This document shows, in pieces, positions 4,284-14,321 of a DNA stretch of 23,847 nt (its first letter is position 1; every line of letters begins with the position of its first letter). Where the stretch lies: contig JAHEQA010000017.1 in the NCBI GenBank assembly GCA_019561615.1, positions 1 to 23,847 of the forward strand, read 5' to 3'. Both the position numbers and the translations under genes were made by a program. The notes beneath the pieces were generated by a model. It was not told the DNA's origin, made no database searches, and saw only the letters and a program-made list of their open reading frames with translations. The DNA is from Methanothermococcus sp. SCGC AD-155-E23 (lineage in GTDB: Archaea > AGJL01 > Methanococci > Methanococcales > Methanococcaceae).

Positions 4284-4398
4284 ATAAATCCCTCTCTAGC
4301 ACTTTTAGAGGATTATACCTCATATAAACTATATATGGTATATAAAGTTAATTGGATTTAAAAGAGAAATGATTTTAAAACCTAATAGGAGGGTTGAG

Positions 4399-6015
4399 AT
4401 GTTCAACAGGAAGGAGATTCTGGAGATGGCAAGGAAGGACTTCGAAGGGACCTGGAGAGCCACAAAGGATTTACTACCTAAAAAACACATAGATAGAAGG
4501 TATCCAAGGGTGAGAATGGAGTATGGAAAGTCCCATCCTGTGATGGATACCATAGAGAGGTTGAGGGAGTGCTACTTAAGGATGGGATTCGAGGAGTATA
4601 TAAACCCCTTAATTGTAGAGGAGAGGGAGATATACAAACAATTTGGTCCAGAGGCTCCTGCCGTACTAGATAGATGCTTCTACCTTGCAGGACTCCCAAG
4701 ACCTGACGTAGGTCTAGGGAGGGAGAAGATAGAGGAGATAGAGAAATTAGGGGTGGAGATGACCCCGGAGAAGGTGGAGAATCTCAGGAAGACCCTCCAT
4801 AAGTATAAAAAGGGTGCTATCGATGGAGACGACTTAGTAATGGAGATAGGTAGGGCCCTTGGGGTATCCAGTGAGATGGGGTTGAAGGTGTTGGAGAAGG
4901 TATTCCCAGAATTTAAGGAGTTGACACCTGAACCTCTATCCCTAACCCTTCGTAGTCATATGACCTCAGGTTGGTTCATCACCCTCTCTCACCTTATTGG
5001 TAAAAAGCCCCTACCCCTAAAACTCTTCTCCATAGACAGGTGCTTCAGGAGGGAACAGAGGGAGGATAGAAGTCACCTTATGACCTATCACTCCGCCTCC
5101 TGTGTAGTAGTTGGGGAGGATATCTCCATAGACGAGGGTATGGCTGTTGCAGAGGGGTTACTCTCCCAACTGGGATTTACAAGGTTTAAATTTAAACCTG
5201 ATGAGAAGAGAAGTAAATACTACGCCCCAGATACCCAGACTGAGGTCTACGCCTATCACCCAAAGTTGAGGGAGTGGTTGGAGGTTGCCACCTTTGGTAT
5301 CTACTCCCCCATTGCACTAAGTGAGTATGGGATAGATGTGCCAGTTATGAACTTGGGCCTTGGAGTTGAGAGGCTGGCCATGATCCTCTACAACTACGAG
5401 GATGTTAGGAAGATGGTATATCCTCAACTCTACGATGTAACCCTAAGTGACAGGGAGATAGCCTCAATGATACATCTAGATAAAATCCCTGTAACTGATG
5501 AGCTCTACAATCTGGGGTTAGACCTTGTAGAGGTCTGTATAAGGAACAGGGATAAACCTGCACCCTGTGAAGTGGTAATTAAGAGGGAGATAGAGTTTTA
5601 CAATGTAAAGAAGGATATAGAGATTACCATCTACGAGGAGGAGGAGGGCAAGAAGTTGCTAGGACCCTCCATATTAAACGAGATCTACGTATATGATGGG
5701 AATATAATAGGGGTGCCAGAGTCCCAGGAGGGTATTAAGGAGGAGTATAAAAAACTTGTAGAGGATACTAGGAGATATGGAATCTCAACTGGAATAAGGT
5801 ATATAGATGCCCTCTCCTTCAAGGTTGCCTATAGGATAGAGGAGGCCCTTGTATCCAATGTAAATCAGTTTAAGATAAGGGTACCTATAGTTAGAAACCT
5901 TGGGGATGTGAATTTAAGGTTGGAGGATGTGGCACTGAGGTATATTGTAAGTAGGGGCAAGGTTATAGATGTTAGAGGCCCAGTCTTTTTAAATGTGAAG
6001 GTGGATATAGACTAA
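4399..6015 (+). CDS. sepS: O-phosphoseryl-tRNA(Cys) synthetase (SepRS)
   Basis: KQFGPEAPAVLDRCFYLAGLPRP, LRSHMTSGWF, CFRREQRED, NLGLGVERLAM and C-terminal IDVRGPVF. ATG 4399 follows a GGAGGG RBS (track start 4369). Confidence 0.96.
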   Translation: MFNRKEILEMARKDFEGTWRATKDLLPKKHIDRRYPRVRMEYGKSHPVMDTIERLRECYLRMGFEEYINPLIVEEREIYKQFGPEAPAVLDRCFYLAGLPRPDVGLGREKIEEIEKLGVEMTPEKVENLRKTLHKYKKGAIDGDDLVMEIGRALGVSSEMGLKVLEKVFPEFKELTPEPLSLTLRSHMTSGWFITLSHLIGKKPLPLKLFSIDRCFRREQREDRSHLMTYHSASCVVVGEDISIDEGMAVAEGLLSQLGFTRFKFKPDEKRSKYYAPDTQTEVYAYHPKLREWLEVATFGIYSPIALSEYGIDVPVMNLGLGVERLAMILYNYEDVRKMVYPQLYDVTLSDREIASMIHLDKIPVTDELYNLGLDLVEVCIRNRDKPAPCEVVIKREIEFYNVKKDIEITIYEEEEGKKLLGPSILNEIYVYDGNIIGVPESQEGIKEEYKKLVEDTRRYGISTGIRYIDALSFKVAYRIEEALVSNVNQFKIRVPIVRNLGDVNLRLEDVALRYIVSRGKVIDVRGPVFLNVKVDID

Positions 6016-6026
6016 GGGTTATACCT

Positions 6027-7496
6027 ATGAGGATAATAATTTTTATCACACTTTTATTACTGTTTTTAAGTACTACTGTTGCCCAGATATACAGGTACGA
6101 CGATGTTGTATTCTATCCCAATGGTAGTCAACATATCAATCTCTCCAAGCTATACGTAGCTAATCTAACGGAGATTCTTAAAGGGGAAGTACTTGAGGCC
6201 TATATAATCTATAAGAATCAGCGTTTTTTTATCATTTACTTTAACAGAAGTATAGCCTTTGACCTTCCCCCTGAACCTATAAATCTCTCTGTAAAGATAT
6301 CTGCCAGCAAGGTGGATTGGGATACCTGGAAAGTAACCTACACCCTGATAAATAACTACGACAGGGAGGTACCTGTCAATATCTCCTTTCCCCCAGGTTA
6401 TAACTTAAAGAACTTCTCTACCTCACTTCCCAGACACTCACATACCTCAATAACTCTCTATAGAAAGTCTTCGTCAAACATCCTACACTTTGAAGACAGC
6501 TATATAAGTTACAGGCTACCCTCCAAGGTAGAGATTGTATACACCCCAAGTATCCCCTTTTCCATAGAGAAGTCCAACAAAGTTGTGAACAACACCATCC
6601 TCTGGATAGGAAATTACTCCATCTACAACATCATCGATGTACCTCTAAAGGCCAACATCTATTTATGGGTGGAGATAGGTAATAGAAGTATAAACCTGGG
6701 AAATATATCAAACATTACCCTACCTCCAAATTCCACCTACTCTGTAGTTAGAAGTATCTACTCAGAGGAGGTACCTGTATTCTACCTTGATATGTACGTG
6801 TGGAATAGGACAGAGGGGGAGATGCTAATACTACCTGTATTGAGGGTAAATGATACCTACAAGATAGGGGTAGCCAGGGTTAAGGGGGAGGTGTTCCATT
6901 ACACTCCACCTATATTAATAGAGGGTGGAAGAAAGAGACCTAAAGAGGAGGAAAAACCCCAAGAGGACAGGAGAAAACCAGAAGAAGAGAAGGAAGAAAA
7001 ACCCCCAGAAAAAACTAAAGAGGAAAGGGAAGAAAGTAAAGAAGAAAAACCCAGGGAGAAACCGACATAAAGAGAAGAAAGGAAGAAAGAAAGAGAAAGA
7101 GTTTTTTTAATAGGAAAGGTGAAAAGCCCTAGGGATGCTGCAGTACTCTCCATCCCTATTTTTATTTTAAATATAGTGGCCATTATCCCGCTACCTCTCT
7201 ATCTCCCCCCCAGTATAGTAGACGATACCCGCGCCCTGGTATACGCCTACAGATCTATTAGGAGGATATACGTCCCAGAGGGTATAAGGTTGAAGGAACC
7301 TCTACCCCTAAATATCCATGTGGTACGTCCCAGGGATTCTCTGGTATCACTTATCAGTAGATCCTTCAAAATACCTTTAAATTCAGCTAAGGCCCTGGTT
7401 ATAGCCATTGAGCATGGAGGTGTTTTGAAAACTACCAACAGAAAAACGTACGAGATCGCCTTAAAGTTAGGTATGGATGCAGAGTTTGTTGAATAG
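6027..7496 (+). pseudogene. Signal peptide + sequon-rich beta ectodomain + charged linker + TM + PIN-like domain (489 codons if intact), interrupted by in-frame TAA at 7068-7070
   Basis: ORFs 6027..7070 and 7119..7496 are in the same frame. The 48 nt between them are open (REERKKERERVFLIGK) and continue the same charged linker. Could be a true nonsense allele or a base-call error. Confidence 0.75.
6925..7100 (+). repeat. Purine-rich low-complexity tract encoding a Glu/Lys/Arg/Pro linker with recurring EEKP-like units
   Basis: Recurrent GAAAAACCC and GAAACC motifs; translation KEEEKPQEDRRKPEEEKEEKPPEKTKEEREESKEEKPREKPT. Confidence 0.7.
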
Positions 7497-7513: not shown

Positions 7514-7792
7514 ATGAAGGAGAAAAGTGAGAAATCAGAGGATGAGATGGAGGAGGATGTTGAACTGTTAAAAAAACTTAGTGAAACTTATAAAATTAGG
7601 AGGAGGAAAAATATACTTGCAGTAATTTTTTTATCCTCTTTTGTACTGTGTTTTAATATATCACTGTTTATAATCACTGACGTTATAGTGTTGGATTCCA
7701 TATATGCAATTGTATCCTCCCTACTTGGAGTGTTGTTTTTGGCACTGGGGATCTATCTTATTTTGGATAGCCCCCCTATTTATATAGAGTAA
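7514..7792 (+). CDS. Small hypothetical membrane protein: charged N-terminus plus two hydrophobic helices
   Basis: GGTGT RBS-like site. A basic patch RRRK precedes hydrophobic segments ILAVIFLSSFVLCFNISLFII and IYAIVSSLLGVLFLALGIYLIL. Confidence 0.75.
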   Translation: MKEKSEKSEDEMEEDVELLKKLSETYKIRRRKNILAVIFLSSFVLCFNISLFIITDVIVLDSIYAIVSSLLGVLFLALGIYLILDSPPIYIE

Positions 7793-7795
7793 TTT

Positions 7796-10700
7796 TTAAT
7801 TGACTCCAATGTTCAACCCCTCCACTGTAGAGATATTTGTACTTATGGAGATGTGTCTCTTGATATATGGCTCAACCTGGTAGTATCTAAACCAGTATAG
7901 GTTTCCACTACTTCCACTTTCATTGAAATCTCCCGAGATACTTAAAATCTCTATATCTTCTGGCTTATACCAGTATATATACACATCCTTTAAAGGCCTA
8001 TATGGGGTAAAGGAGATATTGCACCCCTCTGAAGTCATGGATATGGAGGTAGATATGTTGTGATAGTACCTTACTAGGAGGGGATAGTTCTGGGTGTATA
8101 CAACCCCATTTGATTCTCTGGCAGTAACTGTTATGTTGTATATTCCAGGATCTGGGAGGTAGAAGGAATATTTGTATAACTTCCAGAGTTGGGGATCGTT
8201 ACTGTCTATATCCTCTAACTCCATAGGACCACTGTACAGCAGGGTGCCATTGGGATGGTATATCTCTATCTCAGCTCCTGATATATCGTAGGCTCCAATA
8301 GGATCTGTAACATTAACATAGATTGTTGCCTTATCCCCCTGGTAGTATACATCTCTATCAAAATAGCACTCCTGGATTTTCACGTATGTCGTGGTACTTA
8401 CTCCTATATTTGAAGGATGATTAATATCGTGATATACTTTAATACGATTGTTCCTCCTGGAGTTGTCTATTTTTAATACCAAATAGTAATTCTTTGGAAT
8501 TGTTACTGGAGAGTCTAGGGAGATGTTAAGGACATAATGATTCTGAGATGATTGCTGAGTTATGGTACTGTGACCAATTTCTATAACATTATTTCCATCT
8601 GTAGCATAAAGAATTACTATTAGAGGCTGTTCTGGAGATATGGATCCCTCTATATAGAGATCTACAGAGATGTTTCCATATAGGGTGAAATCATCTGCAA
8701 ATCTTGGATACTGGGCCCAGGTTAGGAAGGTGTGACTCTCTATCTGGGTATAGTTATAATCCTCTGTAGGGGAAGTGGTATTTAATATCCTTGTGCTACC
8801 TCCATGGAGATAGAATGTTTTTTTCACTGTTGGAGGGAGAGGGGTAGAGGTCTTAAAGGTTGTAGAGTCCCTTATAGAGGAGATGTTAGTATTCACAAAT
8901 TCCAGTGTTGTAGTATCTGTGGTCCCAAGGGATGCCATCTGAGGAATCTCCTTTACAACGGTAATATTTTTTGTCCCATTTACATAGATCTCAGGGAGAC
9001 CGTTAGAGTTACTGTCATTTGATACAAAATCCCAGATACCATCTCCCTCTTCATCCTTCCCTATCAGCACCTCTCCATCGTAGATATATGTTGGCCAGTT
9101 CTTTGTGGAGTTTGTAATATTTATATCGAAGTAGTGGAGATCCCCATAGTTATAGAGGGTGATGTTGTAATATACACTTTCTCCAATGTCAGATGTTTTA
9201 CCCTGGATATAGGGCTCTACAGAGAAGGGGTTTATGTATATTATAATACTTTTCTCATCGTTTGAGGTGTTCTGATCGTTAGGAAGGTTTGTTCTTACAC
9301 TTATATTGTAGATACCGTAGGGCATACCTGAGATATTTAGAGGGAAGACAACTGTCTCCTCTTCCTCGTAAGGTACAGAGAGACTGACAAAGGTATAATT
9401 GGTGTAGTTGTATCCCCCTCCAATCCTCCTTACCTCCATACTTACATTGAGATTCTCCACATCTACAATACCGTATAGGGCAACAGTAGAGGTAACGTTG
9501 ATTACAGGGTGAATATTGGGGTTAAATACTTCACCGTTGTAGGGGTAATCTATACTTTTTACCCCTGTATCGTAAAGTTGATTTAACCCCATCTCAATCT
9601 GATCTAACATATCTGAGAGGTTAAATCCTAGACCCCATATAATAGGGACTACCCATGTTTCATTGGGTTCTAGGGTATCCTTGTACCAGGCTAGAGCTGT
9701 TGCTGCATCCTCCGTATATTGTGAATTATTGTTTAGATAACCCCGTCTTATATGATTCCACATAGTCCCGTACTCATTTACCTCATGTTCATAACTGGGA
9801 AGTATGGATTTATATCCTCCATATTCAATTTTTTTAACAGGTTGATTGACTATATCATGACCATATACAACATCGTATGTACTGTTGTAATAACATTCAT
9901 CATCTCCATAATCTCCATTGAAGTTCCAATCCATACCTTGGAAAAACTTTAGATTTCTAAATGTTTTATTTGTAGGATTTTTTATATAATAGATTGTTGC
10001 AAACCATCTGTAGTTGTCCCTTATTATGATCTTTTGAGTTATATTTACTTCCCTATCAGGCCAGGGTGTGTGCATCTTAACAATAATGAGGCTTTCCAAT
10101 ATCTTATGTGGAGTTTCCTGGTCAAGTACGTATTCCCGATATGTTTCGTCGAGGTAGTCTTTTCCAAGAGGTCTATATCCACATCCATTTCCAAACTGAC
10201 TAGTAGTCCCATTATAGGTGTATCTAATAGCAATCTTTGAACCTGCATCCATATCAAGATCGTATCCAAAGTTATCTCCATTTCTTCCAGCATGGTCATG
10301 AGAGCTTATAGTACTCCTATCATCCCCCTCGTTGTAGGGGAAGACTATTGCAGAGATCTGCCCTCCTTCATTAAATATAGTATCGTTATTGGCAATCTCT
10401 ATGGCGATAGAGTTATGAGGGGCAGGAGGTATCAGAGAGATGTTGTATCCGTATATGGGATCGTCGTAAAAGTAGAGAGTATCATTCTCTATGTAGTACC
10501 TTATATCTCCATAAACCCTCCCTGTCCCCCTGTCTATAGAGATGTTATTTACTATAACCCTTCCGTCATCACCTACAATCTCCTTCACCCTATATCCCCT
10601 GGAAGTGTTGATCTTAGCGGAGAATCTATACCAGACATTATCCAACTTGTTCTCCACCTCCACCCTGATCTTTGTCTTATTTATCTTAAAAGTCTTTAGA

Positions 10701-11695
10701 GAGGTGTTCAAAACTTCCTCTGGAATGTTAAATCTCCTTAACAACATCTTTTGCATGGTACTGTTGTATTTGTCCAGGGGTATTGTAACCTCGTAGAGGG
10801 AGAGATTCCCACCTATCTCCCTCTGGGCTATCCTACATTCCTTCAACCTTATCTTACTAAACACTCTATTAATTAGGGGTTTTTTATCACATAGTATCTT
10901 TACTACAATGGCCCTTTTCCTAGGGTCGTAGGAGACTAAGACCTTTGCACTCTCTTTTTCTAACCCCTTTATAAGCGCCGTGATATCTAGGGTCCTGTTA
11001 ATACATCTTGAGGTGTTAAAGCTAAGGAATACCTCCCTCCTAAGGGTGAAATTCTTGTAATGTGAGGTTATAACTAGTGTGTTGTTCAATATTAGAGGAT
11101 AGATAACATACCTGTCTTTTCCTATCCTCTCATACTTTACCTCTAGAGATAGGTTTTTATAGGTGATGTTAAGCTTCCCGTCACTTTCAACTATGACCTT
11201 GTAGGATTTCTCAGACCTATTTAAATAGACCTTGAGGTAAGGTCTTTTTTCAGGTGAGTAATTTAGAAGTATACACCGGTGGAGTGTTTTATTTGGATAC
11301 AAAACATAGATATGGATAGTTTTATTCAGCACTACAGGTGAGAGAATATAGGTGTTGTTTTCCACCTCTACCACATCTAACGTAATATTATCTACATAGG
11401 CACTAACCTCTCCATCAGTCTTAATAACTACCTTGTACCCCTGGACAGTTATGTTGAAATTACTATCTGTAATGCTGTGGTTTTCATCTGAGATATTCTC
11501 AAGAGGGAAAATCTCCTTCTTGGAGGTATTTAAGGTACAGTTTAGGGAGAGGTTCTCTATTCCACTGATGTTACTAGTATTCACTATACTGTTGTTGCTT
11601 ACATTGTAAGTGTGATTAAGTACTACCCCAGTTGCCAGTGGACTTAAAAGAATTAATAGAATAAAGGTGTAGGAGGCCCTCATGGGTATTACCAT
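7796..11695 (-). CDS. Large secreted multidomain beta-rich surface protein (adhesin-like), no C-terminal TM
   Basis: 1299-aa ORF with signal peptide (FILLILLSPLATG); the start may be ATG 11683. Very many N-x-S/T sequons, a CARDB-like end motif DQNTSND, and an acidic Ca-loop-like DEEGDGIWD..DSNSNGLPE. Confidence 0.8.
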   Translation of the reverse strand: MVIPMRASYTFILLILLSPLATGVVLNHTYNVSNNSIVNTSNISGIENLSLNCTLNTSKKEIFPLENISDENHSITDSNFNITVQGYKVVIKTDGEVSAYVDNITLDVVEVENNTYILSPVVLNKTIHIYVLYPNKTLHRCILLNYSPEKRPYLKVYLNRSEKSYKVIVESDGKLNITYKNLSLEVKYERIGKDRYVIYPLILNNTLVITSHYKNFTLRREVFLSFNTSRCINRTLDITALIKGLEKESAKVLVSYDPRKRAIVVKILCDKKPLINRVFSKIRLKECRIAQREIGGNLSLYEVTIPLDKYNSTMQKMLLRRFNIPEEVLNTSLKTFKINKTKIRVEVENKLDNVWYRFSAKINTSRGYRVKEIVGDDGRVIVNNISIDRGTGRVYGDIRYYIENDTLYFYDDPIYGYNISLIPPAPHNSIAIEIANNDTIFNEGGQISAIVFPYNEGDDRSTISSHDHAGRNGDNFGYDLDMDAGSKIAIRYTYNGTTSQFGNGCGYRPLGKDYLDETYREYVLDQETPHKILESLIIVKMHTPWPDREVNITQKIIIRDNYRWFATIYYIKNPTNKTFRNLKFFQGMDWNFNGDYGDDECYYNSTYDVVYGHDIVNQPVKKIEYGGYKSILPSYEHEVNEYGTMWNHIRRGYLNNNSQYTEDAATALAWYKDTLEPNETWVVPIIWGLGFNLSDMLDQIEMGLNQLYDTGVKSIDYPYNGEVFNPNIHPVINVTSTVALYGIVDVENLNVSMEVRRIGGGYNYTNYTFVSLSVPYEEEETVVFPLNISGMPYGIYNISVRTNLPNDQNTSNDEKSIIIYINPFSVEPYIQGKTSDIGESVYYNITLYNYGDLHYFDINITNSTKNWPTYIYDGEVLIGKDEEGDGIWDFVSNDSNSNGLPEIYVNGTKNITVVKEIPQMASLGTTDTTTLEFVNTNISSIRDSTTFKTSTPLPPTVKKTFYLHGGSTRILNTTSPTEDYNYTQIESHTFLTWAQYPRFADDFTLYGNISVDLYIEGSISPEQPLIVILYATDGNNVIEIGHSTITQQSSQNHYVLNISLDSPVTIPKNYYLVLKIDNSRRNNRIKVYHDINHPSNIGVSTTTYVKIQECYFDRDVYYQGDKATIYVNVTDPIGAYDISGAEIEIYHPNGTLLYSGPMELEDIDSNDPQLWKLYKYSFYLPDPGIYNITVTARESNGVVYTQNYPLLVRYYHNISTSISMTSEGCNISFTPYRPLKDVYIYWYKPEDIEILSISGDFNESGSSGNLYWFRYYQVEPYIKRHISISTNISTVEGLNIGVN

Positions 11696-11717: not shown

Positions 11718-12455
11718 TTATTGGGACTCCCTATTCTCTCTCCCATAAGACCTTATAACTTCGTATACTAGCACTAGGAAGACCAGTGCAAATACACTTA
11801 GCCAGAATAATAGATAGCCGTAGGTAGGTAGTTTTGGGAGAGGTAGGATGGAAAACTCTGCATTGATCATAAGTAATGAATCCTTAGGTACTTTAAAGGT
11901 ATCTCCGGGAGGGTATTGATAGGTTTGACTGTATTTATTTGTTACAAATCTTACCTTTAGGTGTTCAATATCCATGTTACTTCCAAATGGAATAGAGAGG
12001 GTTTTGAAGAGGATACCATCCTCTAAAATATGGGCATCGTACTCTAAGGATACGGTGATATTACTCTTTTTCTCTATGGGCTCCCAGATCTCGTACTTTA
12101 TAACGGAGTAGTTGTTGTGATACTCCACGTAGGTTTTCATGGGTATCCAATTTACTCTATCAAAGGAGTAGTATCCCTTGAGGTTTTCCACCTTTATAGG
12201 TTTAACCTCTTTTTCAAAGGGTAGGGGTATTATCCACAACTTTTTTGGTTCCTGTTTCTGGAGTCTAAGTTCTACAATACCAGGTACAAGGGGGTAGTCT
12301 ACCAAATTTTGTAGAGTAATGTTATAGAAAATATGCTGGGGATCTCTATCCACATCTATAACTACTGTAAAATTGGATATCTTCATTACATTTCCGTGAA
12401 TCTGTGTGAAAGATACTATAAAAAAAATTAGTAAGAGTAACTTTTTTCTACACAT
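11718..12455 (-). CDS. Hypothetical secreted protein with C-terminal membrane anchor
   Basis: Signal peptide MCRKKLLLLIFFIVSFTQIHG, beta-rich body, TM YLLFWLSVFALVFLVLVY and a charged tail. GGGG RBS-like site upstream. Confidence 0.8.
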   Translation of the reverse strand: MCRKKLLLLIFFIVSFTQIHGNVMKISNFTVVIDVDRDPQHIFYNITLQNLVDYPLVPGIVELRLQKQEPKKLWIIPLPFEKEVKPIKVENLKGYYSFDRVNWIPMKTYVEYHNNYSVIKYEIWEPIEKKSNITVSLEYDAHILEDGILFKTLSIPFGSNMDIEHLKVRFVTNKYSQTYQYPPGDTFKVPKDSLLMINAEFSILPLPKLPTYGYLLFWLSVFALVFLVLVYEVIRSYGRENRESQ

Positions 12456-12506: not shown

Positions 12507-14321
12507 TTATTTCTTAACTTTCCTCACTACAAGTGCCATTCCTACAACCCCTGTCATTAGTGCTAGAAGTATCTCGTAGTTGTTTCCACTACTTCCCCCT
12601 ATCATTATCATCTTTGGAGATGTAGTAGGTAGTAGGGAGTGTGTAGGGTCTATACCTACGATGAATAGATCTGATGGCATAAATGTCCCTGTTCCATTTA
12701 CAGTATAGATTATAAGTACAGTTTGGTTTTGGTCTAATTCTGTATCGTCGTACCATCCATCTCCATTTGCCCCTCCATTAAGTGGGTTCAAGCACCAGTA
12801 GAGACTTAGGTTATACCTATCGTTGTTAGTTAATGTCTGGTTCCCAGAGTGGTTTAACATATATGGTCTTTCTACTGTAAAATTACCAACTAAACTGAAA
12901 TTTTTTGGTATTAGATCGTATACATAGACAAATGGAGACTTTTCCCCACCTATGTTCTCAACTACGATATATATGGTGTAGGTTCCATCTTCATTACTCT
13001 TTATGGTCTTAGTTACCTTTATCAGATAGCTACCTACTACGTATATTTTCTCTATTACTATATAGGAGCTTCCATATTCGTCGTGGTACTGGTTAACTGT
13101 GTTATTAAGTAGTGTAATGTTACTCTCTGCTATACTGAAGGTACAGTTTGCCCATATTACAGGTGTGCCGTTGAATGTGAAACTATATGTGTCAGATTCC
13201 CACTTCCCTCCCGGTTCTAGTATTTCATTAAGACTTAGGGAGTGATTACTTCCAGGTATTACATTAAAGGGGTCGAGATTTGTTGGATTGCTACCATCTA
13301 CAGCCCATATGTTAACTTTAGTTAGATTGTAGTAGTATTCACTTCCGTTATTCTTAAAGGATACATTTTCATACCACAGGGTGTATTTACCAGTAGTTTC
13401 ATCATAATCAGGTCCTTTTTTGCCTATACTTATACTTCTGTCTCCCACTGCATAGACACCCTCTACCTTGGTACCACTAAGTGTACCATTGTATTTGAAG
13501 AATATAACTGCAAACCCATAGGGCACCTCAGTAGCCTCTCTTCCAGTGAAATTATTCTCTGCCTCTACTGTGAAGGTAATGATTTCTGCCCCTCTTCTTA
13601 ATACTATATCTGTACAGTTAAGGGAGTCGTTTGTACTACCTGAAAAGTAAGGTCCATCCCACAACTTTATCTTACCTATACCCATATAATAGCACTTAGT
13701 AATGTTCAGGAAAGTCCAGTAGGAACTTCCGTAGTGATTTGGGTCATTGGAGAGATACTTTGTTACATTAACTAATACGAGGGTATATTCGTTAGGTAGT
13801 GCTGAAATATTTTTTCCTATAGTCAAGGTTACATTCCACTTAACCCTTTTATTGGCGGGAACCTTTGTAATACTATAGATCTCATTTACAATTACGGGAA
13901 CCCCTGCTTTTGGAATACTGGCTATATCCAGTGGAATGGTAACTACAACATAAGAGTTGGCAGGTAATACTGGAATGTGTATGTAGGTTAAACCAGAGGG
14001 TAATCCTGTATAATTAGGGGCTGTATAAGTTATATCTACTTTCTTTGGAGTACCGTTATAGGATACGTAGGGAGCGGATTTATTATTTTTAATATCTACT
14101 GCTACCCAGACATCACTGAGAATATCCTTTGAGGCGGTGTTGTTTATTATGATATATCCTGTGAGGTTATGAATGGTATAAGATGTTGTACCATTTCCAT
14201 TTACCTCGGCGGTAATGTTGTACCTCTCCTGGTATGTTACTAGTAAAGGGTTGGCAGAGACTACAGACAACACTCCAAGTAGTAGCAACATACCTAGAAG
14301 AAATTTCCAACTATTTTTCAT
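12507..14321 (-). CDS. Cell-surface glycoprotein, multi-Ig-like with a DUF11-like last domain and C-terminal TM anchor
   Basis: Class I signal peptide (..VLSVVSA|NP). I count 30 N-x-S/T sequons. C-terminus is a Ser/Gly linker, TM and RKVKK. GGTGG RBS. Confidence 0.85.
   Translation of the reverse strand: MKNSWKFLLGMLLLLGVLSVVSANPLLVTYQERYNITAEVNGNGTTSYTIHNLTGYIIINNTASKDILSDVWVAVDIKNNKSAPYVSYNGTPKKVDITYTAPNYTGLPSGLTYIHIPVLPANSYVVVTIPLDIASIPKAGVPVIVNEIYSITKVPANKRVKWNVTLTIGKNISALPNEYTLVLVNVTKYLSNDPNHYGSSYWTFLNITKCYYMGIGKIKLWDGPYFSGSTNDSLNCTDIVLRRGAEIITFTVEAENNFTGREATEVPYGFAVIFFKYNGTLSGTKVEGVYAVGDRSISIGKKGPDYDETTGKYTLWYENVSFKNNGSEYYYNLTKVNIWAVDGSNPTNLDPFNVIPGSNHSLSLNEILEPGGKWESDTYSFTFNGTPVIWANCTFSIAESNITLLNNTVNQYHDEYGSSYIVIEKIYVVGSYLIKVTKTIKSNEDGTYTIYIVVENIGGEKSPFVYVYDLIPKNFSLVGNFTVERPYMLNHSGNQTLTNNDRYNLSLYWCLNPLNGGANGDGWYDDTELDQNQTVLIIYTVNGTGTFMPSDLFIVGIDPTHSLLPTTSPKMIMIGGSSGNNYEILLALMTGVVGMALVVRKVKK

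Follow-up and report, generated by a model that had tools for sequence, protein, structure and literature searches.

A degenerate PIN-like domain behind the membrane helix of an archaeal surface protein, encoded next to a two-helix membrane partner

PIN domains are known as soluble nucleases that serve as toxins of toxin–antitoxin (TA) systems, as rRNA and nonsense-mediated decay (NMD) factors and in RNase P. A PIN family of the VapC group, PF11848/COG2405 (DUF3368), is listed with a solved structure, 2mdt, in Table 1 of PMC5499597. There, the family is assigned '2-5' active-site residues, and 2mdt is both given as a predicted inactive example and called a minimal PIN domain of 103 amino acids (aa). 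Asp after S1, Asp/Glu at the start of H4 and Asp/Glu after S4 are described as the near-invariant PIN acids, and at least four acids as required for activity (PMC5499597). Here, we describe an open reading frame (ORF) at 7119..7496 in a stretch of 23,847 nucleotides (nt) from Methanothermococcus sp. SCGC AD-155-E23 (contig JAHEQA010000017.1; the whole stretch is hereafter called the window), which encodes a transmembrane (TM) helix followed by a PIN-like domain and adjoins a gene for a small protein with two TM helices.

Our best explanation of this locus, to which we give a probability of roughly 0.6, is that a catalytically dead, COG2405-derived PIN-like tail works together with its two-TM partner in anchoring or docking surface ectodomains.

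Results

Fold and family of the domain

A sequence-only reading of the window had pointed to a hydrophobic segment, AAVLSIPIFILNIVAIIPLPLYL, followed by SIVDDTRAL..IYVP..LNSAKALVIAIEHGGVLKTTNRKTYEIALKLGM, and had recognised in the latter a PIN-like fold. Both strings are present verbatim in ORF 7119-7496, and the fold was borne out by two comparisons, one of structure and one of sequence profiles. The domain spans 7206..7493 on the forward strand (96 aa), with the element order beta-alpha-beta-beta-alpha-alpha-beta-alpha-beta and the conserved family motif IP-L-N-S-A-K-A. An AlphaFold2 model based on a 17-sequence alignment had a predicted local distance difference test score (pLDDT) of 84.5, with values >90 for residues 70-125, and showed a helix at residues 4-22 followed by the b-a-b-b-a-a-b-a-b core. 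It displayed the alpha/beta fold with a central parallel sheet of the PIN superfamily (core S1, S2, crossover helix H4, S4). In a VIA-align comparison with 48,161 chains, the best match was 2mdt, the PIN domain of SSO1118 (Z 10.6, root-mean-square deviation 2.2 A, 92 of 96 domain residues aligned). It was followed by Nob1 (Z 9.1 and 9.0), PAE0151 (Z 8.7), a chain of a Klebsiella TA complex (Z 8.4) and the AF0591 PIN domain (Z 8.2), with several VapC toxins at Z 6.4-8.0. PIN, Nob1 and VapC titles dominated the ranking down to rank 23, and the first other named fold, a universal stress protein, appeared at rank 24 (Z 6.6).

The 96-aa domain profile was also searched against 1.84 billion representatives, where 27 proteins were matched at E <= 1e-3: 24 with the domain, two repeat proteins and one DUF3368 protein. 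The last of these, P0039 (E 4.8e-4), is a 151-aa protein that matches the Pfam DUF3368 model at 1e-12, whereas the repeat proteins (P0016 and P0038), matched by 14 and 6 short stretches, were set aside as chance. The family set comprised 40 sequences, 39 of them distinct, with some rows being near-duplicates of one another (locus-derived and database-derived). When it was aligned by hhalign with 114 DUF3368/COG2405 proteins, the homologues of P0039, all annotated PF11848, the probability was 98.0% (E 2.7e-13, 73 columns), with query positions 19-93 placed onto template positions 27-103 of 151. Because 2mdt is the solved structure of the COG2405 group, the structure and sequence searches converge on one PIN branch, and the resemblance to PIN is far beyond chance. 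Residues 30-125 of ORF 7119-7496 are thus read here, from sequence and model, as a minimal PIN-like domain descended from the COG2405/DUF3368 branch of VapC-type toxin PINs.

Some searches contributed little to this assignment. Matches in the ESM Atlas (PIN clusters, one 98% DUF3368) all scored <0.9 and served as a lead only; a sequence search of the PDB with the family profile returned designed toroid repeats alone, via a 15-residue string, and was rejected as spurious; and a combined MAFFT alignment of the VapC-like and PIN-ATPase sets was dropped, its C-terminal halves being misaligned. DUF3368 itself is rare in the phylum (five places in 4/40 genomes, none in the window genome, G000) and was left out of the profile. 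Relatives with names come from Methanothermococcus and Methanocaldococcus, the source records labelling the proteins 'hypothetical', and a single-pattern scan of genome contigs gave 8 loci in the same genera. In full-text searches, no description of the domain family was found, though it may appear as a 'PIN_n' cluster in the supplementary tables of PMC5499597.

Loss of the PIN active site

The hhalign register defined the acid positions, and residues were tallied over the 39 distinct domains. In the window copy, the post-S1 residue is D35 (Asp in 32/39) and the post-S2 residue E54 (Glu/Asp in 19/39), whereas the first H4 position holds S89 (Ser in 32/39, Asp in 4/39) and the post-S4 position N107 (Asp in 28/39, Glu in 1/39, Asn in 9/39). 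None of the 39 domains carries all three near-invariant acids together. In two alignments, S89 stands opposite an acid, namely the first Glu in GEaEAI and the Asp in N-D-A-L-I-L-A. The strongest conservation lies instead at P53, in the string I-P-x-N-S-A-K-A and at G118. The alignment of orthologues at the catalytic positions bears on the proposal, already made from the letters of the window, that the first Asp is kept and the later acidic residues are replaced. The first part stands, as D35 is in place. The second is correct for the window copy, which has neither the H4 nor the post-S4 acid, but does not extend to the whole family: N107, common to the window and the metagenome protein P0002, is lineage-specific, 28/39 domains keep Asp there, and the family-wide loss is that of the H4 acid. 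Since D35 is kept but S89 and N107 replace acids, nuclease activity of the window copy is unlikely, and the PIN-like domain in general is most likely catalytically dead, that is, predicted to lack metal-dependent nuclease activity.

Elsewhere in the window genome, a PF01850 search found a single canonical PIN domain (L018, G000:C40:1652-1999), located at the N-terminus of a 642-aa ORF and with its acids intact (VDT..., SELE, GEIDA, TSD). This ORF is conserved throughout the order, its length in relatives being 631-678 aa.

A cytoplasmic tail behind varied ectodomains

ORF 7119-7496 (GTG start; 125 aa, stop included) is the downstream half of a split gene and holds the TM helix and the PIN-like domain. 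The upstream half, at 6027..7070 on the same strand (347 aa), encodes a typical signal peptide in residues 1-20, followed in residues ~20-295 by an all-beta ectodomain with 15 N-X-S/T sequons and then by a K/E/P-rich low-complexity linker that ends at a TAA codon. The single TM helix lies at 7137..7202 (+; approximately residues 7-28 of the 125-aa ORF), and the hydropathy peak falls at residues 371-389 of the read-through protein, in line with the AlphaFold2 helix mentioned above. A model of the 310 N-terminal residues was all-beta (pLDDT 89.2), and its structural matches were beta-sandwich modules, namely mu-homology domains (Z 9.7), complement MG domains and transglutaminase barrels.

Across 17 proteins, the ectodomains contain 255 sequons in 5,886 residues (4.33/100), and the C-terminal domains 7 in 1,736 (0.40/100). 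In relatives in which the domain is fused to the partner, it stands between TM1 and the K/R-preceded TM hairpin of the partner, an independent support for the topology. Because it comes after the one TM helix of a surface protein that has a signal peptide and many sequons, the PIN-like domain is placed by these indicators in the cytoplasm, as the tail of a predicted type I membrane glycoprotein. The sequence-only reading had located it on the cytoplasmic side of a single-pass surface protein, with which the signal peptide, the sequon contrast, the one TM helix and the fused relatives all agree. That reading had also likened the protein to a one-component receptor, with RNA binding among its conceivable outputs, an idea for which no direct support was found. 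The chain ectodomain-TM-output does exist in the relatives, whereas it is split in the window, and no sensor fold was recognised in the ectodomain, which matched generic beta-sandwiches only.

The domain also ends other proteins, in every case behind a TM helix: P0026 (928 aa) has four DUF11 repeats ahead of the TM helix and domain, P0030 (949 aa) has Big_1/Invasin_D3 in that place, and P0025 (702 aa), P0033 (574 aa) and P0028 (398 aa) likewise carry the TM helix and domain at their ends.

A constant two-helix partner

The gene at 7514..7792 (+) is an addition to the first reading, which had missed it. It begins 17 nt past the stop of the PIN-like ORF and encodes a 92-aa protein whose N-terminal helix is first acidic and then basic (..LLKKLSETYKIRRRKN); two TM helices follow, and the protein closes with a conserved G-[IL]-Y-L..PP-I. 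The 41 genomes compared are kin, and co-occurrence among them is therefore not a series of independent events. The two profiles, for domain and partner, each had a single match in the same 17 of them, with the genes always side by side on one strand; the remaining 24/41, including all 7 of genus g3, had no match to either. By genus, the pair was present in 7/12, 1/2, 8/17 and 0/7 (g3) genomes, a patchy pattern that points to joint gain or loss of the two genes. The intergenic gaps ranged from -41 to +69 nt, and two proteins, P0036 (hhalign 94%, E 1.4e-7) and P0037 (97%, E 8.6e-11), are fusions of the domain with the partner. In metagenome contigs with DUF11-type relatives, whose GC content is 46-52% as against 42% for the window, the partner lies downstream in 6/6 loci that have downstream sequence, the seventh being cut at the domain. 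These 7 true loci came from a scan with P0024, from which 62 matches of 19-26 residues were discarded as short chance matches. The partner is likewise found downstream of the domain at locus L058.

UPF0175 (PF03683), the antitoxin family of COG2405 toxins, had no match in the partner at E <= 1, and the neighbour of the domain is a two-TM protein in 17/17 genomes. Complex prediction for the TM helix and domain with the partner scored 0.41 (runs 0.48, 0.41 and 0.01), as compared with 0.01 for the best control; this counted as 'weak support', with no interface reported. The mark used for this score is reached by 116/157 solved complexes and 2/215 mismatches, with scores <=0.60 given by only 18/157.

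The window copy is interrupted

ORFs 6027-7070 and 7119-7496 share one frame and are separated only by the in-frame TAA at 7068..7070 (+), so that reading through it would give 489 residues. The 125-aa protein was matched in 17/41 related genomes; in 16/16 relatives the match lies inside a stop-free open frame of 480-532 aa (470-527 aa when the proteins are counted from the first Met), whereas the frame in the window genome measures 141 aa. The 489-aa read-through protein proposed from the letters alone thus corresponds to a single uninterrupted gene in the relatives but is not one chain here. At the codon in question, P0002, which is 96% identical, has Glu, and the frame of the related genome G009 is uninterrupted. 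Regular read-through or recoding of the TAA was considered and rejected: only one codon is concerned, and the relatives have sense codons there. Since the stop parts the ectodomain from the section with the TM helix and PIN-like domain, this nonsense codon in the linker means that the window copy is either freshly inactivated or made as two pieces.

Read support was taken from Logan contigs of four runs, in which 7069-7103 was skipped as a repeat. A contig of run X1 (depth 1489) spans 6700-7068, including the T at 7068, with no alternative letters, and none were reported for run X2, from another study; runs X3 and X6 leave 6970-7239 uncovered. As no contig bridges 7069-7103, verification of the TAA is partial, and there may be rare variants.

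For the window alone, a competing explanation is a recent pseudogene, in which the TAA ends the protein ahead of its anchor, ORF 7119-7496 goes untranslated and the PIN-like part is a still-intact remnant. We consider this possible, at somewhat lower odds than even. The stop-free frames of all 16 relatives and the Glu of P0002 speak for it. In P0002, a protein from a metagenome contig, the 187-aa gene call starts in another frame of the K/E-rich linker, from which it follows that this contig carries a separate lesion, a different frame break farther upstream in the same low-complexity stretch. In addition, the GTG is the sole possible start of the second half, and a run of seven T at 7101-7107 (codons V-F-L) comes after the stop, 30 nt past the TAA and 11 nt ahead of the GTG, where G009 instead has ACTTATTTA. 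In archaea, oligo-T serves as a terminator, and the run might thus influence how the second half is transcribed. Against a pseudogene, neither half contains any further stop or frameshift, and the partner gene at 7514-7792 is intact. Purine-rich AGGAAAG directly precedes the GTG, which makes re-initiation there conceivable. Moreover, the contigs are broken at the repeat 7069-7103, and of the stop codon they cover directly only the T at 7068. The ratio of nonsynonymous to synonymous substitution (dN/dS) relative to G009 is 0.23 for the PIN-like part (dS 0.49) and 0.18 for the ectodomain, with dS ~0.5-0.6; these values reflect past constraint only, and the age of the stop codon is not datable from them.

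The purine-rich K/E linker also gives rise to long overlapping ORFs in other frames on both strands (within 6899-7183), which are low-complexity artefacts: one of 61 aa at 6925-7110 (+) and one of 94 aa at 6899-7183 (-). P0002 was extended by the gene caller into an ORF of this kind.

A membrane regulator beside the pair

A frequent third gene encodes a protein of 388-395 aa with a signal peptide, an ectodomain of ~200 aa, a TM helix and two winged helix-turn-helix (wHTH) domains (HTH_24 at 1.6e-18, HTH_5, HVO_0163-type); examples lie at L012:2108-3292 and L058:4271-5557. This regulator was found in 11/17 genomes with the pair. In 8 of them (G003, G010, G012, G023, G029, G031, G032 and G036), it stands intact directly past the partner; in G035 it is adjacent but broken, in G006 it lies ~1 kb away, and in G017, where it has a TAG, the distance is ~6.4 kb. 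No copy was found in the window's own subgroup (G000, G007, G008 and G009) or in G025 and G033, which makes 6/17 pair-bearing genomes, and the regulator is therefore not obligatory. In G006 (L014), and in this genome only, a 202-aa ORF that may be an inserted element lies between the partner and regulator genes.

The regulator raises a second explanation, the one closest to the earlier proposal of a 'receptor': the ectodomain would sense the state of the surface or envelope, and the PIN-like tail and two-TM partner would relay it to the neighbouring membrane protein with its double wHTH, together forming a membrane-bound, TA-derived three-component regulator. We regard this as unlikely. The position of the intact gene in the eight genomes speaks for it, as do the broken or displaced copies of the other three and the same triad at L058, and COG2405 PINs typically adjoin transcription-factor-like genes (PMC5499597). 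It is at odds, however, with the six genomes in which no regulator was found and with the short flanks after the DUF11-type relatives, in which none was seen; the ectodomains, moreover, are varied adhesin-like repeats and not known sensor folds.

Genomic surroundings

The window genome belongs to the Methanococcales and is 86% complete, in 51 contigs. The GC content of the window is 42.0%, and that of the corresponding loci is 37.2% in G009 and 27.6% in G031. Just upstream of the split gene lies the SepRS gene (4369-6015). On the other side, the minus-strand gene at 7796-11695 is convergent with the partner gene, 3 nt apart, and encodes a 1299-aa protein with a signal peptide, very rich in N-X-S/T and without a Pfam match, which is probably a large surface glycoprotein; the three closest relatives (L002-L004) have homologues at the corresponding position. 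Beside it are two further minus-strand ORFs without Pfam matches, 11718-12455 (245 aa) and 12507-14321 (604 aa), that may belong to the same surface gene cluster.

Discussion

What was observed here is the fold and homology of the domain, the acids it has lost, the indicators of its topology, and a partner gene that strictly co-occurs with it and in two relatives is fused to it. From these observations we infer physical binding between the two proteins, a lack of nuclease activity and a role in anchoring or docking. The protein would run from a signal peptide through a beta-sandwich ectodomain and a charged linker to one TM helix and the PIN-like domain, and its tail would act jointly with the 92-aa product of the next gene downstream, a membrane protein with two helices. 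By analogy, the tail may bind this partner as VapC binds its antitoxin, and the two could form a three-helix membrane anchor with a cytoplasmic knob. This knob would be where variable surface ectodomains are held or docked, and perhaps other factors of the cytoplasm or membrane as well. Because this tail also stands behind unrelated ectodomains of adhesin-like type (DUF11, Big_1), a shared cassette for anchoring or docking is favoured over a dedicated sensor.

Several observations weigh against this explanation. No Pfam or NCBIfam model matches the PIN-like domain: scans covering the domain, the partner and the full-length proteins stayed at noise level, and no Pfam family was found at E <= 10 in 17/17 members. 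When the 17-sequence profile was aligned by hhalign with local VapC-like and PIN-ATPase sets, the probability was ~2.4%, although the register was as expected. Foldseek, suggested earlier as the check on a PIN fold, found nothing in the PDB at E <= 1e-3 (best 1v96 at E 2.1e-3, then VapC4 at 4.2e-3), and it was VIA-align and hhalign that placed the domain in PIN. D35 and the post-S4 Asp are still well conserved (32/39 and 28/39), so a metal site or an atypical activity may persist. In the window subgroup, five K/R precede the TM helix and one follows it, and the positive-inside rule is not followed on its own. The case for partner binding consists of genomic linkage and a weak complex score, with one of three runs at 0.01. 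Finally, the copy in the window is interrupted, and its functionality gains no support here.

The least probable explanation, and in our view a very doubtful one, is a membrane-tethered nuclease that cleaves or at least binds RNA via D35/D36, E54 and, in most members, the post-S4 Asp, while the Ser or Lys of N-S-A-K-A stands in for the lost acid: Asp after S1 (32/39) and Asp/Glu after S4 (29/39) would suit it, and inactive PINs such as Utp23 retain an RNA-binding role (PMC5499597 Table 1; PMC3860261), but the three near-invariant acids coincide in 0/39 domains, H4 has Ser in 32/39, the post-S2 position is acidic in only 19/39, two of the three acids are missing in the window copy, the domain begins ~5 residues past the TM helix with little room for a substrate, and at least four acids are required for activity (PMC5499597).

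Three things set the family apart from the known PINs. A toxin-type PIN branch, with the catalytic triad lost in every member seen, is placed on the cytoplasmic side of the membrane at the end of exported glycoproteins; it has gained a constant membrane partner; and tail and partner look like one portable cassette, with different ectodomains ahead of it in two or more archaeal lineages. The family is a further case of toxin exaptation and possibly reveals a new principle of anchoring or docking for archaeal surface proteins, and an uncharacterised archaeal family that has no Pfam or NCBIfam model gains a testable structural and functional hypothesis. A broader proposal, to which we attach a small probability, is that a TA toxin has been domesticated: a COG2405 PIN deprived of catalysis would form the cytoplasmic plug of a hitherto undescribed archaeal C-terminal anchoring or signalling cassette that is swapped between unrelated surface ectodomains and, where the wHTH regulator is present, reports the state of the surface protein to transcription. 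If so, the cassette (TM helix, pseudo-PIN and two-TM partner) together with the wHTH protein would be a membrane-bound three-component descendant of a TA system.

Of the known systems that resemble the locus, the degenerate PINs Utp23 and SMG5 have likewise lost catalytic acids while keeping the PIN fold for binding (PMC5499597, PMC3860261), but they are eukaryotic, soluble RNA-processing or NMD factors with no membrane anchor, related to the domain at the superfamily level only. The PIN-TRAM proteins of PIN.COG4956 (YacL-like) offer a precedent for a PIN joined to TM helices (PMC5499597), and 3ix7 matches the domain at Z 7.8. They differ in having four N-terminal TM helices and a TRAM domain, no ectodomain and 3-4 active-site residues kept, and are mainly bacterial. 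VapBC type II TA systems have the PIN fold in common with the locus (VapC rows at Z 6.4-8.4); in both, a small partner gene is tightly linked, and many genomes here add a neighbouring DNA-binding protein. Unlike in VapBC, the partner gene here comes after the PIN gene, and its product is a membrane hairpin devoid of a DNA-binding domain; 0/39 domains have a complete active site, and the 'toxin' is the tail of an exported protein of ~500-1100 aa.

The closest likeness is to COG2405/DUF3368, with which the domain shares the PIN core (hhalign 98%) and the elements V-P, G..LP, A.AI.iA and L.D.KA...A..LGL. SSO1118 (2mdt), the best structural match, is a minimal PIN of 103 aa (PMC5499597), as compared with ~96 aa here, and the group already includes predicted inactive members (PMC5499597). 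COG2405/DUF3368 proteins, however, are soluble, stand-alone and ~150 aa long, with an extra C-terminal DUF3368 helical part; the domain here has no such part, leaves the Pfam DUF3368 model unmatched, and its alignment ends at template position 103 of 151. They also have the GEaEAI and LDD acids and pair with UPF0175 antitoxins (PMC5499597), whereas here Ser replaces the H4 acid, the S2 Glu is lost through a two-residue gap, and the domain stands behind the TM helix of a surface glycoprotein, paired with a two-TM protein.

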